The notes beneath the pieces were generated by a model that was not told the origin of the DNA, searched no databases, and saw nothing but the letters and a program-made list of their open reading frames with translations. Both the position numbers and the translations under genes were made by a program. DNA of 54,780 nucleotides from a virus (lineage: Duplodnaviria; Caudoviricetes), in the IMG/VR virus record IMGVR_UViG_3300027769_000037, positions 1 to 54,780 of that record, one strand, 5' to 3'. This document shows, in pieces, positions 413 to 9,315 of the stretch. Every line of letters starts with the position of its first letter. Position 1 is the stretch's first letter.

Positions 413-940
413 ATGAATCTACAAGTATATAAATTACAACCAAATGCGGCGGATATTAATTATTCCACCAAAAATTCAGCTTGTTTTGATATTTCTGCAT
501 ATTTTCATTATCAAAATTCATTTAAAACATATTCTAAAGACAATAAAGAAATTGAAATTTTAGGTATTCAAGATGATAATGGAAATGCATATGTTGAACT
601 TCCCCCAGAATGGAGAATGCTAGTTCCTACTGGACTAATTCTTGATATACCAGAACAACATTGCGTCAAGATTTATCCACGGTCTGGTATTTCTACAAAA
701 AAAGGATTGAATCTAATTAATTGTGTTGGTATAATTGACTCTGATTATGTGCAGCAATTAATGATCCCAGTTTATAATAATTCACAAGAGCGTTTACGAA
801 TATATGCTGGTGATCGTATAGCGCAGGGTGAGATGGTTTATCAACCACAAGTAAAAATTTCTTATATAAACGCAAGACCAGAACAAAAAACTGATCGAAA
901 TGGTGGATTTGGTTCAACTGGTATATCATGGACTCAGTAA
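413..940 (+). CDS. dut: dUTPase (trimeric)
   Basis: Motifs SACFD, PRSG, GIIDSDY, GDRIAQ, R-x-GGFGSTG. Confidence 0.95.
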   Translation: MNLQVYKLQPNAADINYSTKNSACFDISAYFHYQNSFKTYSKDNKEIEILGIQDDNGNAYVELPPEWRMLVPTGLILDIPEQHCVKIYPRSGISTKKGLNLINCVGIIDSDYVQQLMIPVYNNSQERLRIYAGDRIAQGEMVYQPQVKISYINARPEQKTDRNGGFGSTGISWTQ

Positions 941-2217
941 AAGATTTTATACACAATCATGCAGAATTTCATACTCTTATTCCAAATCTTTCTGAAGATG
1001 CTTGGAAAATATTAAATTCTAATTATTCCAAAGAAGAAATAAAAAAAGGATTGGCCGAATACATTATAGATGCATGTCCTTTATTTCCATTTAGAATAAT
1101 ATCAGAAGAAACTGTAAGGGAGAAATTTGTTTCTCTTCGCAGGGAAAATATATATTCATTTATTTCATATCCAAATAAACAAGATGTTGTTGAAAAATAT
1201 AACGACTACAAATATCCATATAAACAATATGGATTAGGATTGATAGAATTTGGACATTACTATAATGATATAAGTAACTATTTTCAACAAGAAAATAGGA
1301 TGGCTTGCCCATCCTATGGGTTTCCTTCTCCAATCGAAATATGGAAAGACAAAAATCTCTTGGAAAAGATGAATTGGATTTTTTGGAGAATGGGAACAAC
1401 AACTATAAATGCAACAAGTATTCGCGGATCGTTTAGACTTGGAGCATATGTTGCAACTCAATTTAAACCCCATGTTGCCAAAGTAATATATGATTATAAT
1501 AATAGCGAAATTATTTTAGATTTTAGCATGGGATGGGGAGATAGATTGGCTGGATTTTATACTTCCAGATCTTCTAAATATTATGGATGTGATCCCAATC
1601 CAAATACATTTAAAGTTTATAAGGACCAGTGTATTGCCTATGAAAAATATTTAGGATGTAATAATCCTATTATTATTCAAACAAAAGATAGATTTGAAAT
1701 AAAGGGAGTAAAACATTGCGTGATAATGAATCTTCCGGCCGAAGATATTGATTGGAAATCTGAAACAGGCGAAAGGGGAGTTGATTGTATATTTACATCT
1801 CCTCCTTATTTTTCCACTGAAATATACAACAAGGGCGGAGAAAAACAAGAAAATCAGTCATGGAGCAGGTATCCAGAATATGAAAACTGGAGAGATAAGT
1901 TTTTATTTCCGGTGTTATCTAAAACTTTTGAAGTTTTATCTGATACCGGATTTATGGCTATTAATATTATGGACCCAACAGTAAATCGTATTCGTCACAG
2001 AACTTGTGATGAAATGGTTGACTATGTTACAAAAGATTTAAATGGTATTTTTTATGGTCAATTGGGAATGAGAATAAAACAACGACCAAAGATTTTAAGT
2101 AAAAATGAATTAAAGAAACATTTATCATCTGATTTTATTGAAAATATTTGGTGTTTTGGGAAATGTGATTTAAATTTTAAGACAGAGCCTAATACTCTAG
2201 AAAGCGTTTTATTATGA
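928..2217 (+). CDS. DNA amino-methyltransferase (N4-C/N6-A type)
   Basis: SAM-binding LDFSMGWG..GCDPN and catalytic FTSPPY motifs. Confidence 0.85.
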   Translation: MDSVKDFIHNHAEFHTLIPNLSEDAWKILNSNYSKEEIKKGLAEYIIDACPLFPFRIISEETVREKFVSLRRENIYSFISYPNKQDVVEKYNDYKYPYKQYGLGLIEFGHYYNDISNYFQQENRMACPSYGFPSPIEIWKDKNLLEKMNWIFWRMGTTTINATSIRGSFRLGAYVATQFKPHVAKVIYDYNNSEIILDFSMGWGDRLAGFYTSRSSKYYGCDPNPNTFKVYKDQCIAYEKYLGCNNPIIIQTKDRFEIKGVKHCVIMNLPAEDIDWKSETGERGVDCIFTSPPYFSTEIYNKGGEKQENQSWSRYPEYENWRDKFLFPVLSKTFEVLSDTGFMAINIMDPTVNRIRHRTCDEMVDYVTKDLNGIFYGQLGMRIKQRPKILSKNELKKHLSSDFIENIWCFGKCDLNFKTEPNTLESVLL

Positions 2218-2528
2218 CAAAAGAAGAATTATTTGAAATGCATATAAAAATGTGTAATGATGCTTTGACTTTGATGAAAAAGAAAAATGCAGATTATGCC
2301 GGAAGTGGAGATGGCAATCCTTTTGCTAATTTTAAAAGAGCAGAATCAATGGGAATTTGCACCACCGAGCAGGCATTTTTAGTCAGAATTATTGATAAAA
2401 TATCTAGACTATCTTCTTATTCGTCAAATGGTAAACTTATTGTGGAAGATGAAACAGTTCACGACACATTAATTGATATGATTAATTATTGTGTTTTATT
2501 GTCTGCTTATTTGGAGGATAAACAATGA
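2214..2528 (+). CDS. nucleotide-modification-associated domain protein (DUF1599/Nmad-like, all-alpha)
   Basis: KKNADYA...NPFANF...DKISRL...ETVHDTLIDMINY pattern. Confidence 0.7.
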   Translation: MTKEELFEMHIKMCNDALTLMKKKNADYAGSGDGNPFANFKRAESMGICTTEQAFLVRIIDKISRLSSYSSNGKLIVEDETVHDTLIDMINYCVLLSAYLEDKQ

Positions 2529-3343
2529 ACATCATTGCTTATACTATAAATAGTCCAATGCAAATTAATTTGCCAAGTAAGAAAAGAGATTGGATGGATA
2601 AGACTCCAAATTCTTTTGCCTATAGATGTTTACCATTAACCATAGCAAATGGATATGGGTGGAATATATTAAATCCTTTTAAGTTTAGTGCAAAGTGGAA
2701 TGGTGGTATGAGTATAAATGATGTTGAGATAAATGAACCAACAAAATATAATTTTGTACAAAGTCACTTTGGTTCTGGTATAATAACCTTTAATATCGGT
2801 TTTTTATTAAAAACAGATGAAGGTGTTAATATTTACGCAAAAGGTCCTGCTAATAATCCAAAAAGAGGAATAAGTGCATTAGAGGGTATAATAGAAACTG
2901 ATTGGTTGCCTTATACTTTTACTATGAATTGGAAAATAACAGAACCAAACTATGAAATAGTATTTGAGCAAGATGAACCTATTTGTACATTTTTCCCAAT
3001 AGAACGAGGTTTCTTAGAACAACATAATCCAGAAATAAGAAGTATTTCTGAAAATGAAAAATTAAATAAAGATCTTTCTGAATGGGGAAGGCATAGAGAG
3101 CAACACTCAAGACGATGTTTTTTGGATAATGTCGAAGATCGTGGAATAAAGCATTATTTGAGGGGAGAATATCCAGATGGGCAAAAAGCAAAAGAGCATC
3201 AGGTAAATGTTACGGCAAAGCCATTTAATATAATTACTAAGTATGATAAACCATATTCTGCCTGGCCTGTGTTTTCTACAAAGATAAAAGAATCTAAAGA
3301 TAGTCCGTGTTACGATAATTGTTGTCTTGAAAGTTACAAATGA
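2525..3343 (+). CDS. DUF6065-like conserved protein
   Basis: RDWMD.T...FAYRCLPLTIAN.YGW and GIIETDWLPYTFTMNW patterns. Confidence 0.7.
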   Translation: MNIIAYTINSPMQINLPSKKRDWMDKTPNSFAYRCLPLTIANGYGWNILNPFKFSAKWNGGMSINDVEINEPTKYNFVQSHFGSGIITFNIGFLLKTDEGVNIYAKGPANNPKRGISALEGIIETDWLPYTFTMNWKITEPNYEIVFEQDEPICTFFPIERGFLEQHNPEIRSISENEKLNKDLSEWGRHREQHSRRCFLDNVEDRGIKHYLRGEYPDGQKAKEHQVNVTAKPFNIITKYDKPYSAWPVFSTKIKESKDSPCYDNCCLESYK

Positions 3344-4809
3344 AATTTTATACAAATGTATATGCTTACGGCAATAAAATACTTGTTAGATATTATGATA
3401 ATGGAGATAAGAGACAGGACGAAAAATATTTCGAACCGTCTTTATTTGTTTCTTCTACTAAACCTGCAAAATTTAAAAGCATTTATAATAAACATCTAAC
3501 TGAAATGAAATTTTCAAATAGAGAAGAATACAATGAATTTATTGAACAATATTCAAATATAAATGGATTTGAAATACACGGTGAAATTGGAGTAGAATAT
3601 CAATATATTAGAAAATATTATGAAAAGTGTGAATCTGATATTTCAAAACTTGATATTCTCTATTTGGATATTGAGACTACTTGTGAAGATGGGTTTCCAA
3701 ACATTGAAGACCCAGAAGAACAAGTTATTGCCATAACAGTTAAAAGAAAAAATAAAACTCCAGTAGTTTTTTGTCTTGGTGAATATTCTGGCAATGAAGA
3801 TATCCGAAAATATTCAGATGAAACTAAACTTTTATCTGATTTTGTTTCTTATATTTCTGATGATTATCCTGATATAATTACTGGTTGGAGTGTTAGATTT
3901 TTTGATATCCCATATCTGTATAATCGTATTGTTAGGTTGTTTGGAGTTAAATACGCAAAGAGACTTTCACCTTGGAATATCATTAGAGATAAAACAATAA
4001 ACAGAAATGGTTATGATGTAAAGGTTTATGATCTTATTGGTATTTCTACACTAGATTATTATGAATTGTATAAAACATTTACATATACTAATCAGGAATC
4101 TTATAAATTAGATCATATTGCTTCCATAGAGCTAGGTGAGCGAAAACTTTCCTATGATGAATATGAAACTATTCAAGATTTTTATAAGGGGAATTTTCAA
4201 AAGTTTATTGAGTATAATATACAAGATGTTTTACTAGTTGAGAAACTAGAGAATAAACTAAAGTTAATGGAACTTGCAATTTCTTTAGCTTATTCTGCTG
4301 GTGTTAATTACAATGATGTTTTTTCTCAAGTAAAAACATGGGATGTTATTATTTACAACTTTTTAATGGATAAAGGTATAATTATCCCACCAAAGAAAAA
4401 ATCATCAAAGGACGAGAAATATGCAGGAGCATATGTAAAAGAACCTTTAGTCGGTTTGCATAATTGGGTTCTTAGTTTTGATTTAAATTCTCTTTATCCT
4501 CATTTAATCATGCAATATAATATTTCACCAGAAACTGCCGTAATCCAAGGCCTTCGTGGAACCGTAACGCCAGATGGTGTTCTAACAAATGGTTCGGTAA
4601 CTATGAAAAGTTTAATTGAAAATAAGGAAAAGAATCTTTCTACGGCGGCAAATGGCACAACATATCAAAAAGATATTCGAGGATTTTTGCCTGAATTGAT
4701 GGATAAGATGTATCAAGATCGTAAACTTTTTAAAAATAAAATGATTGAGGCAAAAAAACAATTAGAGAAAGTAAATCTTGAAATTAAAAACAGAGGACTT
4801 GACTCTTAA
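3340..4809 (+). CDS. 43A: family B DNA polymerase, N-terminal subunit (gp43A: exonuclease, palm motif A, first fingers helix)
   Basis: ExoI DIET, ExoII GWSVRFFD, ExoIII YNIQD, GAYVKEP, motif A DLNSLYP. Ends after MYQDRKLFKNKM; motifs B and C are absent. Confidence 0.93.
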   Translation: MKFYTNVYAYGNKILVRYYDNGDKRQDEKYFEPSLFVSSTKPAKFKSIYNKHLTEMKFSNREEYNEFIEQYSNINGFEIHGEIGVEYQYIRKYYEKCESDISKLDILYLDIETTCEDGFPNIEDPEEQVIAITVKRKNKTPVVFCLGEYSGNEDIRKYSDETKLLSDFVSYISDDYPDIITGWSVRFFDIPYLYNRIVRLFGVKYAKRLSPWNIIRDKTINRNGYDVKVYDLIGISTLDYYELYKTFTYTNQESYKLDHIASIELGERKLSYDEYETIQDFYKGNFQKFIEYNIQDVLLVEKLENKLKLMELAISLAYSAGVNYNDVFSQVKTWDVIIYNFLMDKGIIIPPKKKSSKDEKYAGAYVKEPLVGLHNWVLSFDLNSLYPHLIMQYNISPETAVIQGLRGTVTPDGVLTNGSVTMKSLIENKEKNLSTAANGTTYQKDIRGFLPELMDKMYQDRKLFKNKMIEAKKQLEKVNLEIKNRGLDS

Positions 4810-4826
4810 TTGTTGAATGATATAAT
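4799..4826 (+). promoter_or_regulatory. sigma70-like leaderless promoter overlapping the end of 43A
   Basis: TTGACT-N16-TATAAT, TGA extended -10; ATG at 4833 is 6 nt downstream. Confidence 0.8.
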
Positions 4827-4832
4827 ACTTAA

Positions 4833-5387
4833 ATGGAGACAAGAAATGTCATCGACCACTACCACTACTGGAAGCACGAAGATATCCTCGCGGACCTCGA
4901 CTCTAAAAGGAACAATTTTACGATACTGTGCAGTAATTTATATAACGATTTCAATATCGCTACAGTCATTCGTAATGCGAATGCGTTCTTGGCTTCAAAG
5001 GTAATTGTTTATGGTTCTAAACAATATGATCGTAGAGGCACCGTAGGTACTCATCGTTATACCCATTTTACCTATTGCAAAACAACAATAGACCTAATTG
5101 ATGAAATGAAGAATATTTTTAATTCTCATACGAGTGCAAAGCTCATTGGAATTGATAATATTTCTACTGCTCAACCAATTGAAACTTACCAATGGGATGC
5201 CAATACACATTATATTATTGCTCTTGGTCAAGAGCAAGTAGGTCTTCCAAAGGAAATTATTCAAATGTGTGCTGAGTTGCTTTATATTAAGCAATATGGT
5301 TCTGTTCGCAGCCTAAATGTAGGAACGGCATCTGGAATCGTAATGTATGATTATTGCTCAAAGGTTTTAAACAATGTCACTGCCTGA
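4833..5387 (+). CDS. SpoU/TrmH-TrmL family (SPOUT) RNA 2'-O-methyltransferase
   Basis: SPOUT motifs N-IATVIRNANAF, LGQEQVGL, YGSVRSLNVGTASGIVMY. Confidence 0.88.
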   Translation: METRNVIDHYHYWKHEDILADLDSKRNNFTILCSNLYNDFNIATVIRNANAFLASKVIVYGSKQYDRRGTVGTHRYTHFTYCKTTIDLIDEMKNIFNSHTSAKLIGIDNISTAQPIETYQWDANTHYIIALGQEQVGLPKEIIQMCAELLYIKQYGSVRSLNVGTASGIVMYDYCSKVLNNVTA

Positions 5388-5565
5388 AGAAGAAAAACAC
5401 GCTCTGGAACAAACTAAAAACTTTCTGTTTGATTTGCTCGATCCAAAGAAAACTCCCAGAGTGCCGCGTGATGTAAGGAAACGAGCAAGCAGATGTTTAA
5501 AACATTATCCAATAGTCATTGACTTTTTTATAGAACGATGTATAATGGATAAACAAGACAACTGA
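5374..5565 (+). CDS. small conserved phage protein
   Basis: 63-aa ORF with PKKTPRVPRDVRKRASRCLKHYP, a motif recurrent in phage hypotheticals. Confidence 0.6.
   Translation: MSLPEEEKHALEQTKNFLFDLLDPKKTPRVPRDVRKRASRCLKHYPIVIDFFIERCIMDKQDN
5519..5546 (+). promoter_or_regulatory. sigma70-like promoter for tRNA cluster
   Basis: TTGACT-N16-TATAAT, 24 nt upstream of tRNA-Leu(TAA). Confidence 0.7.
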
Positions 5566-5570
5566 ACAAC

Positions 5571-5654
5571 GGGATTGTGGTGTAATTGGCAGCCACCTTA
5601 GACTTAAAATCTAATGCCTACAAAGGCGTGCGGGTTCGAGTCCCGCCAATCCCA
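5571..5654 (+). tRNA. tRNA-Leu(TAA)
   Basis: Acceptor GGGATTG/CAATCCC, anticodon arm TTAGA-CTTAAAA-TCTAA, long variable arm, T-loop TTCGAGT. Confidence 0.93.
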
Positions 5655-5659
5655 TTAAA

Positions 5660-5701
5660 AAGGCAATTCGTATATATAGTAATAGGAGTACGAATTGCCT
5701 T
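5660..5701 (+). promoter_or_regulatory. 13-bp hairpin over the HNH translation start region, with late-promoter-like TATATATA in its loop
   Basis: AAGGCAATTCGTA(5660-5672)/TACGAATTGCCTT(5689-5701); GGAG at 5685-5688; ATG at 5702. Confidence 0.75.
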
Positions 5702-6232
5702 ATGAAGACTTATGGTAGGTTAAATAAAATCGGTAAAGACAAATTACAAGAGTTAGCAAACAATTGTAAAAGTTTAGCAGGGTTAATAGAACAATTGGGT
5801 TATAGTAAAACTGCTGGTGGAACATTTTCTGTTGTTAAAAAGTATCTACAACTATATCAAATAGATACATCTCATTGGACAGGTAGAGCATGGAATAAAG
5901 GTCAGCAATTAAAAGATTGGTCGAAATATGCCAATCATCAATATTGTAAAAAACATTTAATATCAGAAAGAACTCATAGATGTGAGTTGTGTGGATTGAC
6001 AGAATGGCATGAATCTCGTATTCCTTTGGAGATTCACCACAAAGACGGTAACAGAACAAATAATGAATACGATAACTTACAATTACTTTGTCCAAACTGT
6101 CATTCATTAACAGATACTTGGAAAGGTAGAAATAAAAAACACCAAAGTGGTGAAATGGCATACACGATTGATTCAAAATCAATTGCCGAGAGGCGTGTGG
6201 GTTCAAGTCCCACCTTTGGTATTCCTTTGTAG
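5702..6232 (+). CDS. HNH (free-standing homing) endonuclease
   Basis: CELC...LEIHHKDGNRTNNEYDNLQLLCPNCH. Confidence 0.9.
   Translation: MKTYGRLNKIGKDKLQELANNCKSLAGLIEQLGYSKTAGGTFSVVKKYLQLYQIDTSHWTGRAWNKGQQLKDWSKYANHQYCKKHLISERTHRCELCGLTEWHESRIPLEIHHKDGNRTNNEYDNLQLLCPNCHSLTDTWKGRNKKHQSGEMAYTIDSKSIAERRVGSSPTFGIPL
6141..6221 (+). tRNA. tRNA-Leu(CAA)
   Basis: Acceptor ACCAAAG/CTTTGGT, anticodon arm ATTGA-TTCAAAA-TCAAT, long variable arm, GTGGG-TTCAAGT-CCCAC. Confidence 0.92.
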
Positions 6233-6293
6233 TGAAATGGTATCACAGAAGATTTTGGTTCTTTTTTTCTTGGTTCGAATCCAAGCAAAGGAA
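6223..6293 (+). tRNA. tRNA-Gln(TTG)
   Basis: Acceptor TCCTTTG/CAAAGGA, anticodon arm GAAGA-TTTTGGT-TCTTT, CTTGG-TTCGAAT-CCAAG. Confidence 0.88.
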
Positions 6294-6336
6294 TTATCAA
6301 TTCATAAATTAAAAAACTGTTGACATTAAGTTAATT

Positions 6337-6407
6337 GTGGGTATGATGTAGTGGTAACATAAGAGTTTTCCAAACTTTTCTCACGGGTTCGAATCCCGTT
6401 ACCCGCT
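6337..6407 (+). tRNA. tRNA-Gly(TCC)
   Basis: Acceptor GTGGGTA/TACCCGC, anticodon arm AGAGT-TTTCCAA-ACTTT, ACGGG-TTCGAAT-CCCGT. Confidence 0.9.
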
Positions 6408-6424
6408 TTATTAGGATTTTTACT

Positions 6425-6982
6425 ATGGCCTTCAACGCAAAAACTATCAAAAATTTTATTCAAAACGATCAATGTCAACTTCTTGTTAATTATGCAAAAC
6501 AAACTGATAAGTGGGAAAAAACAAGCGATCCGTTCTGGGATGGTCGGGTTCTTCGACCATATCTTGTACCAGATCCTATTAAAAATACTCTAAGAACAAT
6601 TCTATTTTCAATTAAAAAAACAATAGAATTGGAATATAATCTTGATCAAGAAATATTTCCTGACACCTATGATATGATTAGATGGTTTCCGGGTATGAGT
6701 CAAGAACCACATTGTGATGATATGTCTGGAACATCTGCTCATAATCATTTTGGTCATAGATATTTTGGATGTGTTCTTTATCTAAATGAAGATTATGAAG
6801 GTGGTCATACTTTTTATCCAAAACAAAATTTTGATATCACTCCTGAGATTGGTAAACTAGCTATTCATTTGGGCGATTGTGAACATATGCATGGTGTGAC
6901 CGAAATTAAAAACAATACAAGATATACGATAGCTAGTTTTTGGACTTTTGATAAAACTAGGTCAAGTTTATATAATTTTTAA
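6425..6982 (+). CDS. 2OG-Fe(II) oxygenase (prolyl-hydroxylase-like)
   Basis: HxD (PHCDD), YLNEDYEGG, HGVTEI...RYT. Confidence 0.88.
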   Translation: MAFNAKTIKNFIQNDQCQLLVNYAKQTDKWEKTSDPFWDGRVLRPYLVPDPIKNTLRTILFSIKKTIELEYNLDQEIFPDTYDMIRWFPGMSQEPHCDDMSGTSAHNHFGHRYFGCVLYLNEDYEGGHTFYPKQNFDITPEIGKLAIHLGDCEHMHGVTEIKNNTRYTIASFWTFDKTRSSLYNF

Positions 6983-6988
6983 TAATAT

Positions 6989-7061
6989 TCTCTGATAGCT
7001 CAGCAGGTAGAGCGGCGAGCTGTTAACTCGCATGTCACTGGTTCGAATCCAGTTCGGAGAG
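6989..7061 (+). tRNA. tRNA-Asn(GTT)
   Basis: Acceptor TCTCTGA/TCGGAGA, GCGAG-CTGTTAA-CTCGC, ACTGG-TTCGAAT-CCAGT. Confidence 0.93.
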
Positions 7062-7064
7062 TTT

Positions 7065-7136
7065 GCCATCTTAGCTCAGCGGTAGAGCCATGCTTTTGTA
7101 AAGCATAGGTCGTGAGTTCGAATCTCACAGGTGGCT
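7065..7136 (+). tRNA. tRNA-Thr(TGT)
   Basis: Acceptor GCCATCT/AGGTGGC, ATGCT-TTTGTAA-AGCAT, GTGAG-TTCGAAT-CTCAC. Confidence 0.93.
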
Positions 7137-7138
7137 TT

Positions 7139-7420
7139 ATGAAATCCAAAATTAAATTAAAAATTAACAATAAAGATTGGATAATTAAATTAGTCCATCC
7201 TAAATATTTACCAGAGTCGTATGGAGAGTGTGATGATGCTTATGATGTGGATAATAAAAAACCACAGATTTGGATAAGGAATGATCTATCTAAAAAAGAT
7301 ACTGTTACTACTCTTATACATGAAATCTTACATGCATCGCGCCCTGAGTTATGTGAGGAAGCTGTTGACTACACTTCAACTGTGATTGGTAATGCTTTGG
7401 AAAAAATGGAGTATATATGA
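7139..7420 (+). CDS. small HExxH metallopeptidase-like protein
   Basis: TLIHEILHA. Start moved to ATG 7139 because the listed GTG start lies inside tRNA-Thr. Confidence 0.65.
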   Translation: MKSKIKLKINNKDWIIKLVHPKYLPESYGECDDAYDVDNKKPQIWIRNDLSKKDTVTTLIHEILHASRPELCEEAVDYTSTVIGNALEKMEYI

Positions 7421-7614
7421 ACAATTATATTGCTGGTCTAGGTTATAAAGAAGGATATCAAGATAGAATGTTGGGTAAACCAAATCGTTATGTAATTCGT
7501 ATAGAAGACACACCGTTTTGGGAAGAATATAATGTAGGATACTCAGAAGCTTCTCGCCGTATTCTTGAAGATGCCCGTAGCAAAATAGATACTCGTGATT
7601 TTCTTGTAGAATGA
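7417..7614 (+). CDS. hypothetical protein
   Basis: ATGA-coupled to both neighbours; GGAG SD upstream. Confidence 0.6.
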   Translation: MNNYIAGLGYKEGYQDRMLGKPNRYVIRIEDTPFWEEYNVGYSEASRRILEDARSKIDTRDFLVE

Positions 7615-8162
7615 TTTACTTTATAAGCGACACACATTTTAATCATAATAATATTCTCAAATATACTAATAGGCATCTTCTCTATGAGAATGTTGCTGAG
7701 ATGAATAAATCTCTAATTGAGAATATAAATTCTGTTGTGACCAAGAAAGATACCTTGTATCATCTTGGAGATTTTTGTATGGATAAAAATATTCATTGGC
7801 TAAAGAAAACAAATGAAATTCTCGATCATCTTAAATGTAAGAATATTCATTTGATTCTCGGAAACCATGATCCAAAACCAACTTCAGAATATCTCAAGAA
7901 AGCAAAGTTCAAGAGTGTAAATACATATTTTGAACTTAATTATAAGAAACATGGTATTTGTCTTTCTCATTATCCACTCCATACTTGGAACAAATCATGT
8001 CCAATAAACCTACATGGTCATTGTCATGGAAAGCTAGGATTTATAACTTCACCTCGAAAAGATGATTTCATGCGATTTGATATAGGGGTTGACTCAGATT
8101 CTTTGAACTATAAACCTATCGCAATAGAAAGACTTCTTGAACTTTACAATCTACACAAGTAA
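7611..8162 (+). CDS. calcineurin-like metallophosphoesterase
   Basis: DTH, HLGD, GNHD, SHYP, HGHCH motifs. Confidence 0.9.
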   Translation: MIYFISDTHFNHNNILKYTNRHLLYENVAEMNKSLIENINSVVTKKDTLYHLGDFCMDKNIHWLKKTNEILDHLKCKNIHLILGNHDPKPTSEYLKKAKFKSVNTYFELNYKKHGICLSHYPLHTWNKSCPINLHGHCHGKLGFITSPRKDDFMRFDIGVDSDSLNYKPIAIERLLELYNLHK

Positions 8163-8184
8163 TGCTTGTGTAGATTTTTTTATT
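8148..8184 (+). terminator. intrinsic terminator closing the polymerase insert
   Basis: AATCTACACAAG-TAATG-CTTGTGTAGATT followed by a T tract. Confidence 0.75.
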
Positions 8185-8193
8185 TGATAAAAT
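8166..8193 (+). promoter_or_regulatory. leaderless promoter for 43B, overlapping the terminator
   Basis: TTGTGT-N16-TAAAAT with TGA extension; ATG at 8200 is 6 nt downstream, the same geometry as at 413 and 4833. Confidence 0.6.
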
Positions 8194-8199
8194 ATGAAA

Positions 8200-9315
8200 A
8201 TGAACATTGATAATCTGTCTAATGAAGAGCTGCTTCATCTGAAAAAAACACTTGAATATGATATTTCAAAATATCATAACTTTCAACTTGTTAGAAAAAT
8301 TCAATTAAACTCTGCTTACGGTGCAATCGGTAATGAATGGTTTAGATATTATTCTACCGAACTTGCTGAAGCTATCACCTTATCTGGGCAATTATCCATA
8401 CAATGGATTGGCCAGGAGTTGAATAAATATCTCAACAAAGTTATCAAATCAGATGGCGTTGATTATGTGATTGCATCTGACACTGATTCTGTATATCTTT
8501 GTCTTGATGAACTTGTTAAAAAAATATTTCCATCCAATACGGATAAGAAAACTATTGTTGATTTTCTAGACAAATCATCAAACGATTTAATACTACCATT
8601 TATTAAGAAAAAGTTTGAAGAACTTGCAGCAACCATGAATGCTTATGAAAATAAAATGCAGATGGGTAGAGAAATAATTGCAGATAAGGGTATATGGACT
8701 GCTAAAAAAAGATATATGCTGAATGTTTGGGATTCAGAAGGAGTGCGATACACTGAACCTAAATTAAAAATAATGGGTATAGAAACAACTAGAAGTTCTA
8801 CACCAAAGGTTGTAAGAGAAGAATTAGAGAATGTTATTGATATCATATTGAATCGTGACGAGGACTCTTTGATTTCATATGTTGAGGATTTTAAAAGTAG
8901 ATTTATGAAAATGCCAGCAGAATCTATAGCATTTCCTAGATCTGTGAATGGCATGGATAAATATTCAGATCCTTATCAAATATATAAAAAATCAACACCC
9001 ATTGCGGTTAAAGGAGCTTTGATATATAATCATCAAATCTCTAAACTTGGATTAGAGAAAAAATATAGATTGGTGGGTGAGGGTGAAAAAATTAAATATT
9101 TGCATTTAAAGAAACCAAATCCACTTGGTGGAATGAAGGGTGAAGATCAAGTTGTAGCTTTTCCTTCAACTCTTCCAAAAGAATTTAAGTTGGATGGATA
9201 TATTGATTTTAATATGCATTTTGAGAAATCATTTATAGATCCATTATCAACTATCGTGAATGCTATCGGTTGGCAATTAGAAAGAAAAACAACACTTGAG
9301 AGTTTATTTGAATGA
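8200..9315 (+). CDS. 43B: family B DNA polymerase, C-terminal subunit (gp43B: second fingers helix, motifs B/C, thumb, clamp-binding tail)
   Basis: KIQLNSAYGAIGN, ASDTDSVY, KKRY, KIMGIETTRSSTP, C-terminal TLESLF clamp motif. Start at 8194 or 8200. Confidence 0.93.
   Translation: MNIDNLSNEELLHLKKTLEYDISKYHNFQLVRKIQLNSAYGAIGNEWFRYYSTELAEAITLSGQLSIQWIGQELNKYLNKVIKSDGVDYVIASDTDSVYLCLDELVKKIFPSNTDKKTIVDFLDKSSNDLILPFIKKKFEELAATMNAYENKMQMGREIIADKGIWTAKKRYMLNVWDSEGVRYTEPKLKIMGIETTRSSTPKVVREELENVIDIILNRDEDSLISYVEDFKSRFMKMPAESIAFPRSVNGMDKYSDPYQIYKKSTPIAVKGALIYNHQISKLGLEKKYRLVGEGEKIKYLHLKKPNPLGGMKGEDQVVAFPSTLPKEFKLDGYIDFNMHFEKSFIDPLSTIVNAIGWQLERKTTLESLFE

Follow-up and report, generated by a model that had tools for sequence, protein, structure and literature searches.

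Codon supply is the older explanation for tRNA genes in phages; evasion of defenses that cut tRNAs has been added more recently. Here we describe a gene for a SpoU/SPOUT-class RNA 2'-O-methyltransferase that precedes a series of tRNA genes in a viral contig of 54,780 bases (IMG/VR record IMGVR_UViG_3300027769_000037). This whole stretch is called the window, and our analysis covers its part up to about 12.8 kb. Among characterized enzymes, TrmH (Protein Data Bank (PDB) 7EDC, 1V2X, 1ZJR) shares with the phage protein the SPOUT trefoil-knot class, the Asn and Arg of motif 1, and an alignment over the full length, into which the helix preceding the knot domain also falls. The phage protein differs in sequence, with only 15–20% identity, in lacking the C-terminal extension, in having an N-terminal motif and a DRRGTVGTH loop of its own, and in being phage-encoded and, as far as transcription can be predicted, co-transcribed with tRNA genes. 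TrmL (YibK, CspR) is likewise a small stand-alone SPOUT enzyme, but it has no N-terminal extension, and its similarity to the phage protein is confined to the C-terminal half. The two known Leu substrates of TrmL are the very isoacceptors that lie beside the phage gene, tRNA-Leu(UAA) and tRNA-Leu(CAA), which agrees with the titles of PDB entries 4jak and 9j5p.

On the genomic side, T4 SegB provides a case in which the tRNA cluster of a T4-like phage was invaded by a free-standing homing endonuclease gene (excerpt of PMC2330249). SegB is a GIY-YIG enzyme, whereas the endonuclease in the window is of the HNH type, and the excerpted account of the T4 tRNA cluster mentions no RNA methylase gene. 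Split gp43 polymerases of T4-like phages are broken at the fingertip of the fingers domain, with open reading frames (ORFs) 2 bp to 3 kb apart (Petrov et al. 2006, 2010, as relayed in an excerpt of PMC3061061). Neither a SpoU-plus-tRNA cargo nor a minimal island with a single tRNA-Leu(UAA) is mentioned in that excerpt. Our literature search found no description of a phage SpoU–tRNA operon, and some of the split-polymerase papers that it brought up deal with other polymerases. In the available part of a 2026 review on how tRNA modifications affect viral replication (PMC13191261), giant viruses are the only ones for which tRNA-modifying enzymes of viral origin are named. The locus presents a known kind of enzyme in an unusual genomic wiring.

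On balance, we favor reading the gene as a TrmH-like SPOUT tRNA ribose 2'-O-methyltransferase that acts generally on the phage tRNA set, most likely at G18. Host RNA polymerase would start at the methylase ATG, and the transcript would run on into the tRNA genes, making the methylase the first, leaderless cistron of an early unit that is driven by the host polymerase and carries the phage tRNAs. Enzyme and tRNAs would come from one precursor, with tRNA processing separating the message from the tRNAs; in close relatives where the stop codon abuts the first tRNA, processing would also trim the mRNA. The enzyme would then methylate the phage's own tRNAs, and possibly host ones, most likely at G18 in the D-loop, as TrmH does. 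SPOUT proteins are dimers, and by this likeness the phage enzyme is presumably one as well. At least 149 viral contigs have a tRNA-type methylase as part of the unit from which their tRNAs are transcribed, which suggests that these phages complete their tRNAs without depending on the host, and the nesting of the cassette in a split polymerase shows a route by which such cargo travels.

Layout and promoter of the island

The GC content of the window is 37.2%. The DNA of its family-B DNA polymerase finds its closest match in cyanomyovirus gp43, which identifies the window as a T4-like phage, and freshwater metagenomes contain near-identical DNA. The GC-rich host supposed in the initial annotation finds no support here. 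The features of the island and its immediate surroundings are given below, all on the plus strand. The six window tRNAs score 55.7–68 bits in Rfam, where the gathering score for tRNAs is 29 bits.

3340..4809 (+), N-half of a split family-B DNA polymerase, gp43A-like (exonuclease domain and start of the polymerase domain; PF03104, PF00136)
4799..4826 (+), predicted sigma-70-type promoter (TTGACT, 16 nt, extended −10 TG-n-TATAAT; 11/12 consensus matches plus TG)
4833..5387 (+), SpoU/SPOUT-class RNA 2'-O-methyltransferase, TrmH-like, 184 aa (PF00588)
5374..5565 (+), 63-aa ORF, BPSL0761 family (NF041728, 39.8 bits against a cut-off of 35)
5571..5654 (+), tRNA-Leu(UAA), anticodon loop CUUAAAA (ARAGORN; Rfam 55.7 bits)
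5660..5699 (+), strong hairpin before the HNH start codon (−19.4 kcal/mol, z −5.78)
5702..6232 (+), free-standing HNH endonuclease of homing type (PF13392, PF01844; phrog_10822, E 3.2e-33; PADLOC HEase, E 1.7e-21)
6141..6221 (+), tRNA-Leu(CAA), anticodon loop UUCAAAA (ARAGORN; Rfam 58.3 bits)
6222..6294 (+), tRNA-Gln(UUG) (ARAGORN; Rfam 63.3 bits at 6223–6293)
6337..6407 (+), tRNA-Gly(UCC) (ARAGORN; Rfam 59.4 bits)
6425..6982 (+), 2OG-Fe(II) oxygenase (PF13640, E 7.7e-9)
6988..7062 (+), tRNA-Asn(GUU) (ARAGORN; Rfam 67.2 bits)
7065..7136 (+), tRNA-Thr(UGU) (ARAGORN; Rfam 68 bits)
7139..7614 (+), two small ORFs of about 93 aa (ATG at 7139) and 65 aa (7417–7614) (weak phrog_1233 match only)
7611..8162 (+), calcineurin-like metallophosphoesterase (PF00149; phrog_547, E 2e-47)
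8148..8176 (+), terminator-like hairpin closing the island (13-pair stem, then a T-run)
8194..9315 (+), C-half of the split family-B DNA polymerase, gp43B-like (PF00136)

The island (4810–8193) is nested between the two polymerase halves. The N-half aligns to residues 1–477 of the unsplit gp43 of P-TIM68 at 46% identity and the C-half to residues 480–830 at 50% identity. The break at 477/480 lies at the tip of the fingers and leaves the halves 3.4 kb apart, a configuration like that of the split gp43 genes described above. As the initial annotation had noted, the SpoU gene stands shortly before tRNA-Leu(UAA), which is followed by tRNA-Leu(CAA); the gap between the SpoU stop codon and the first tRNA measures 183 nt and is occupied by the 63-aa ORF. 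The anticodon loops CUUAAAA and UUCAAAA also bear out that both Leu tRNAs carry A36-A37-A38. Directly abutting tRNA-Leu(CAA) is tRNA-Gln(UUG). Among the window ORFs, TTA and TTG make up 34% and 15% of Leu codons and CAA makes up 74% of Gln codons, and the codon use of the phage agrees with its own tRNA set.

The −10 element of the promoter ends 6 nt before the SpoU ATG. With this spacing, transcription should begin at the first base of the ATG or right beside it, which predicts a leaderless methylase mRNA; no Shine-Dalgarno sequence is present before the window SpoU ATG. The same layout recurs in 45 of 54 related split-polymerase loci with enough upstream sequence (25 of 31 distinct upstream sequences), so the leaderless promoter proposed in the initial annotation holds up well. 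In its conserved form it consists of TTGAC(A/T), 16–17 nt and an extended −10, with the start codon 6–7 nt further on in 43 of the 45 loci; the distance in the remaining two is 9 nt, with a start that had been placed one codon late. Even among the nine loci that do not show the full layout, several still keep the −10 element. Because the hexamers and distances are fixed while the spacer sequences vary, the promoter is under selection. The −35 hexamer lies within the last codons of the polymerase N-half (conserved ...RGL... C-terminus; window 4790–4809), and across relatives this stretch serves as both coding sequence and promoter.

Other members of the family begin differently. In a second set of phages the SpoU start codon follows 2–3 nt after the 3' end of tRNA-Ile(UAU), and tRNA processing would leave those messages nearly leaderless too. 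One subgroup (L067–L070) departs from both arrangements, with a normal AAGGAGG ahead of a GTG start. Contigs from three metatranscriptome libraries, belonging to three studies, match the methylase region (window 4857–5579) without mismatch. We did not count them as expression evidence, since neither a transcript nor its start can be read from contigs and the libraries may contain carried-over DNA.

Family and fold of the methylase

The Pfam domain PF00588 (SpoU_methylase) covers residues 29–172 of the phage protein (E 8.6e-21, 75 bits against a cut-off of 29.7), and the window copy has lost none of the family invariants; N41 and R47 of motif 1 are among those kept. Across 147 sequences, neither R47 nor G132 varies. 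Ahead of the domain stands a conserved N-terminal extension of 28 residues, in which R4, N5, Y12, W13 and H15 are invariant, and the family also has an invariant D-R-R-G-x-V-G-T loop. At E ≤ 1e-30 this orphan SPOUT subfamily comprises 157 clusters, and searches of PHROGs and PADLOC for it gave no match in either. Judged by sequence and fold comparisons, the protein is a member of a distinct SpoU-class subfamily, phage and bacterial, with TrmH as its nearest characterized relative.

Several profile comparisons lead to this placement. Among the NCBIfam models, RlmB scores 52.7 bits and TrmH 39.2 bits over the full length, and TrmL scores 31 bits over residues 86–176 only; none reaches its cut-off (RlmB 160.15, TrmH NF008295 227, TrmL TIGR00185 190.6 bits). 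A six-frame search gives 30.8 bits for the TrmL model TIGR00185. When a profile of 120 homologs was compared with the E. coli paralogs, TrmH came first with 49.7 bits, followed by RlmB (29.3), TrmJ (20.9), YfiF (18.2) and TrmL (15.1). With hhalign, residues 16–178 align to residues 7–165 of E. coli TrmH over 155 columns that include the N-terminal helix (99.4% probability, E 2.4e-21); TrmL is reached with 96.5% probability over 130 columns (E 9.9e-10). The top sequence match in the PDB is Aquifex TrmH (1zjr, E 2.2e-7), which aligns over the full length, as do TARBP1 and E. coli TrmH 7edc among others; the TrmL entries match in the C-terminal half only.

The structural comparison used an AlphaFold (AF2) model built from a 147-sequence alignment, with a pLDDT of 95 and a pTM of 0.89; a single-sequence model with a pLDDT of 37.9 was discarded. 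In the model, nothing follows the last knot helix, and the chain stops at residue 184. In a Foldseek search, TARBP1, AviRb, Aquifex TrmH, RlmB and Thermus TrmH all precede TrmL, which first appears at rank 21. VIA-align Z scores follow a similar course, with AviRb at 20.8, TARBP1 at 20.5, Thermus TrmH 1v2x at 20.4, RlmR at 19.8, RlmB at 18.9, Aquifex TrmH at 18.5, E. coli TrmH at 18.2 and E. coli TrmL at 15.3–15.8. The 1v2x alignment covers model residues 10–182. All three TrmH structures (1v2x, 1zjr, 7edc) align from model residue 9–10, and TrmL and TrmJ align only from about residue 25–28 (E. coli TrmL from 27–28).

The same rankings bear on whether the protein might instead be an rRNA 2'-O-methyltransferase of the RlmB/AviRb type that acts on host ribosomes, with the tRNA neighborhood reflecting no more than shared early expression. 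RlmB does give the best NCBIfam score (52.7 bits), and AviRb is the top structural neighbor (Z 20.8), with RlmR (19.8) and RlmB (18.9) close behind. Nevertheless, the RlmB score compares with a cut-off of 160.15 bits, and the family profile prefers TrmH to RlmB (49.7 against 29.3 bits). The phage protein is also without the N-terminal RNA-binding domain of these 240–270-aa enzymes, as only 28 residues precede its SPOUT domain; the matched rRNA enzymes have 249–267 resolved residues and are aligned from residue about 33–51 onward. In addition, none of 30 polymerase islands (described below) holds the gene without tRNAs. We consider an rRNA target very improbable.

A phylogeny bears likewise on TrmL, the identity that the initial annotation had put forward. 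In a 63-row tree, the phage proteins and the bacterial set share one clade (SH-aLRT 88), and the TrmL clade stands apart (SH-aLRT 100). The tree thus speaks against TrmL to the extent that its clade is separate, and it leaves the choice between TrmH and TrmL as sister group at a polytomy. Combined with a TIGR00185 score of 31 bits against 190.6 and the last place among five E. coli paralogs, this separation argues against a TrmL-like identity.

Linkage to tRNA genes and the target site

Of 154 candidate stretches from viral contigs, 149 proved to code for a relative of the methylase, and 80 loci were kept. tRNA genes lie beside the methylase in 78 of these; the other two have only 2 nt of downstream sequence. 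Two genomic settings occur. The order polymerase N-half, methylase, tRNAs, polymerase C-half is found in 55 loci, and in the other 25 the methylase is surrounded by an array or cluster of tRNA genes, the available flanks lack a polymerase half, and the gene is most often wedged between tRNA-Ile(UAU) and tRNA-Glu(UUC). In many relatives (e.g., L010) the stop codon of the methylase abuts tRNA-Gln. In the array-type loci L045–L065, the stop codon even lies about 10 nt inside tRNA-Glu(UUC), as in L050, where the ORF spans 4992–5555 and the tRNA starts at 5546; an RNase P cut at the 5' end of this tRNA would strip the stop codon from the message.

De-replication at about 95% identity left 35 clusters, of which the 28 with at least 1 kb on both sides were counted as lineages; these counts reflect a few ancestral gene orders passed on by descent, not independent events. 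Every one of the 28 has a tRNA within 1 kb, most often Gln(UUG) (17 lineages), then Leu(UAA) (15), Leu(CAA) (11) and Glu(UUC) (8). At least one Leu tRNA falls within this distance in 16 lineages and both in 10, and five have no Leu tRNA anywhere in the examined locus. Complete islands illustrate the latter case: L004, whose methylase is 87% identical to that of the window, holds only Asp, Asn, Thr, Gly and Tyr tRNAs, and L034 holds only a Gln tRNA.

As a reverse test, we fetched 80 loci by their polymerase C-half, 58 of which show both ends of the gene. The polymerase ORF is uninterrupted in 28 of the 58 and carries an island at exactly the same point in the other 30. Of these islands, 22 contain SpoU and tRNAs, seven contain tRNAs without SpoU, and one contains neither; SpoU without a tRNA was found in 0 of 30. 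The absence of SpoU-only islands, against seven with tRNAs alone, indicates a one-way dependence, of the methylase on the presence of tRNA genes. Leu(UAA) occurs in six of the seven SpoU-less tRNA islands, three of which (L162, L163 and L197) have no other tRNA between the halves (gaps of 185, 179 and 447 nt). This distribution suggests that tRNA-Leu(UAA) founded the island and that the methylase and other tRNAs came later. As the most persistent resident of the island, Leu(UAA) by itself explains why it is so frequently near the methylase.

We also scanned bacteria, using one genome per species, and obtained 28 loci with the family signature; carriers include Weissella, Bifidobacteriaceae, Coriobacteriia and Dormibacteria. 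In 27 of them, namely 26 bacterial loci and L090, there is no tRNA gene within 4 kb. The exception, L089, has a nearby tRNA and is a phage-like contig binned into a metagenome-assembled genome (MAG). L090, with a 53%-identical methylase, lies on a 546-kb contig labeled as a Bacteriovoracaceae MAG that carries about 50 tRNA genes in clusters together with genes for Hsp20 and a LAGLIDADG endonuclease; this contig probably represents a huge phage that was assigned to a bacterial bin. More distant phage relatives also show many tRNA hits, 29 in Rhodococcus phage NiceHouse and 27 in a 484-kb uncultured phage, and GenBank labels the Rhodococcus phage relatives 'tRNA-methyltransferase'.

All SpoU-class genes were listed exhaustively in five bacterial genomes that carry the family. 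A TrmL-like protein (138–183 bits) coexists with the family in four of them, which argues against the two having the same function. RlmB is present in all five, and the SpoU-class set of Lancefieldella consists of RlmB and the methylase family only. No canonical TrmH scores above the cut-off in the five genomes, a negative to be read beside the fact that this model also passes in only three of 14 control genomes; the absence fits a TrmH-like role for the family.

Some distant members carry N-terminal fusions to a Panacea/SocA antitoxin domain (P0143, P0173), a DUF559 nuclease-like domain (P0164, P0174, P0182) or a GNAT domain (P0226). Fusion partners also include HAD hydrolase and HTH domains, and P0195 and P0206 belong to the fusion set as well. 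The fusion clusters have one or two members each (five of eight looked up). Such fusions may hint at a role in conflict systems, which we treat only as a lead.

With these distributions in hand, the proposal that the phage brings a Leu-specific kit for UUA/UUG decoding can be weighed. Here a TrmL-like wobble methylase would place Cm34 or (c)mnm5Um34 on the phage tRNA-Leu(CAA)/(UAA). In the window, both Leu isoacceptors do adjoin the gene and share A36-A37-A38, the codons in question are well used (TTA 34%, TTG 15% of Leu codons), both Leu tRNAs lie within 1 kb in 10 of 28 lineages and at least one in 16, and the polytomy leaves TrmL as a possible sister group. The family evidence runs the other way, since the TrmL model reaches 31 of 190.6 bits in the C-terminal half only, TrmL ranks last of the five E. 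coli paralogs and lacks the conserved 28-residue N-terminal extension, and TrmL-like proteins coexist with the family in four of five bacterial genomes. So does the gene content: the five lineages without a Leu tRNA in the locus include L004 and L034, and six islands have Leu(UAA) without the methylase. The coupling of methylase and tRNAs claimed in the initial annotation therefore stands in a general form, across two genomic settings, and not as a Leu-specific kit. The linkage to Leu tRNAs across related phages is itself partial, at 16 of 28 lineages within 1 kb and none in the locus in five. We give the wobble-methylase explanation little credence.

A broader alternative is that several tRNAs with U34 (Gln, Glu, Leu and similar) receive a ribose methyl group within their anticodon loop or close to it. 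Such a mark would tune the decoding of A-ending codons, or it would armor the phage tRNAs by removing the 2'-OH needed by tRNA-cutting defense nucleases. In 25 of 28 lineages, Gln(UUG) or Glu(UUC) is found within 1 kb, and among the 33 clusters with tRNAs one of the two stands closest to the gene in 25. Distant members are fused to conflict-type domains (Panacea/SocA, DUF559, GNAT), and phage tRNAs have been proposed to counter tRNA-targeting defenses (excerpt of PMC10264068). However, 19 of 25 anticodon types seen in the islands (Rfam-checked or ARAGORN-called) have U34, and because most tRNAs of these AT-rich phage islands are of this kind, the neighbor pattern is unspecific. The arrangements go back to few ancestral gene orders, the gene of the L002–L004 lineage adjoins Asp(GUC) and Asn(GUU), the clusters behind the fusions are singletons or pairs, and PADLOC gives no match. 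Moreover, homology favors TrmH over enzymes that act at position 32 or 34. An anticodon-loop target therefore seems unlikely.

For the TrmH-like enzyme that we favor, we infer tRNA as the substrate and position 18 as the site. G18 is preferred because TrmH is the closest characterized relative, because all six window tRNAs have G18-G19, and because the substrates of E. coli TrmH, namely Leu, Ser, Tyr and Gln tRNAs (Kohno et al. 2023, excerpt of PMC11640301), include the three commonest neighbors of the phage gene. The same excerpt reports that a short A14–G18 distance is important for TrmH. In the tRNA-Gln(UUG) of the window, the D-loop is 7 nt long and A14 is separated from G18 by two nucleotides, although the distance is also short in the window tRNA-Gly and tRNA-Thr.

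Several observations weigh against this assignment. The target site rests on remote homology, with 15–23% identity to solved TrmH-class proteins, and the TrmH equivalog cut-off is missed (39.2 against 227 bits). There is no C-terminal extension: the protein ends at residue 184, and the alignment to E. coli TrmH stops at 165–169 of 229, with TrmH continuing for about 60 residues past the aligned region. In TrmH this extension serves initial tRNA binding (excerpt of PMC11640301). The rRNA enzyme AviRb is level with TrmH in the structure ranking (Z 20.8), and RlmB is the best match by raw NCBIfam bits. In the tree, E. coli TrmH, the TrmL clade and the methylase family meet at a three-way node; this polytomy does not establish TrmH as the sister group, and the family call rests on profile scores instead. 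The loci on genome contigs lie mostly away from tRNAs, which makes the linkage phage-specific, and the linkage could in part reflect one inherited ancestral arrangement. Given how narrow the TrmH model is (3/14 controls), the absence of TrmH from the five bacterial genomes carries little weight.

Room for another site is left by the polytomy in the tree, by the lack of a C-terminal extension and by the novel motif at the N-terminus. In one further scenario the methylase would be a counter-defense or decoding device that acts at a site other than G18, such as in or near the anticodon loop of U34 Gln, Glu and Leu tRNAs. It would also be the founding member of an uncharacterized SPOUT subfamily, employed by Coriobacteriia, Bifidobacteriaceae and Weissella to make a modification without a named enzyme. 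We regard this scenario as unlikely. The methylated position would assign a function to the 157 clusters of this orphan subfamily; it would also put to the test whether phage tRNAs owe some of their usefulness to being modified, and offer a handle on tRNA-based phage–host conflict.

The homing endonuclease and other cargo

The HNH gene separates the two Leu tRNAs, and its last approximately 30 codons run through the whole tRNA-Leu(CAA) gene. It is absent from L001, whose SpoU is 97% identical and in which the Leu tRNAs are 4 nt apart, and homologs lie just upstream of Leu(CAA) in L007, L020, L023, L025 and L044. This placement is as would be expected for a site-specific homing endonuclease, and the nuclease motif together with the presence/absence polymorphism points to a free-standing one. 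The 14-pair hairpin at 5660–5699 ends 2 nt before the HNH start and encloses AGGAG; none of 200 shuffled sequences folds as well. It looks like a translational mask on the HNH endonuclease in read-through transcripts.

The 63-aa BPSL0761-family ORF overlaps the 3' end of SpoU by 14 nt. Within tRNA islands, its homologs follow SpoU in L001 and L089 and precede it in L067 and L068, and they also occur in the SpoU-less loci L173, L176 and L183, just before the phosphoesterase. The 2OG oxygenase and the phosphoesterase had been suggested as further tRNA modification or repair parts; the comparison shows variable cargo instead. The oxygenase gene occurs in only two of 80 SpoU loci (L074, L075), and the phosphoesterase, a frequent last gene of the island, is also present in SpoU-less L173, L176 and L183. 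The metallophosphoesterase beside SpoU in L090 is unrelated to that of the window (BLASTP E 0.054) and so provides no independent link between the two genes. The 65-aa ORF recurs before the phosphoesterase in relatives.

Upstream of the polymerase, positions 413–3343 encode a dUTPase, a 429-aa N6/N4 DNA methylase-like protein, DUF1599 ('nucleotide modification associated domain 1') and DUF6065. The gene order is kept in relatives, and the segment may be a DNA-modification module.

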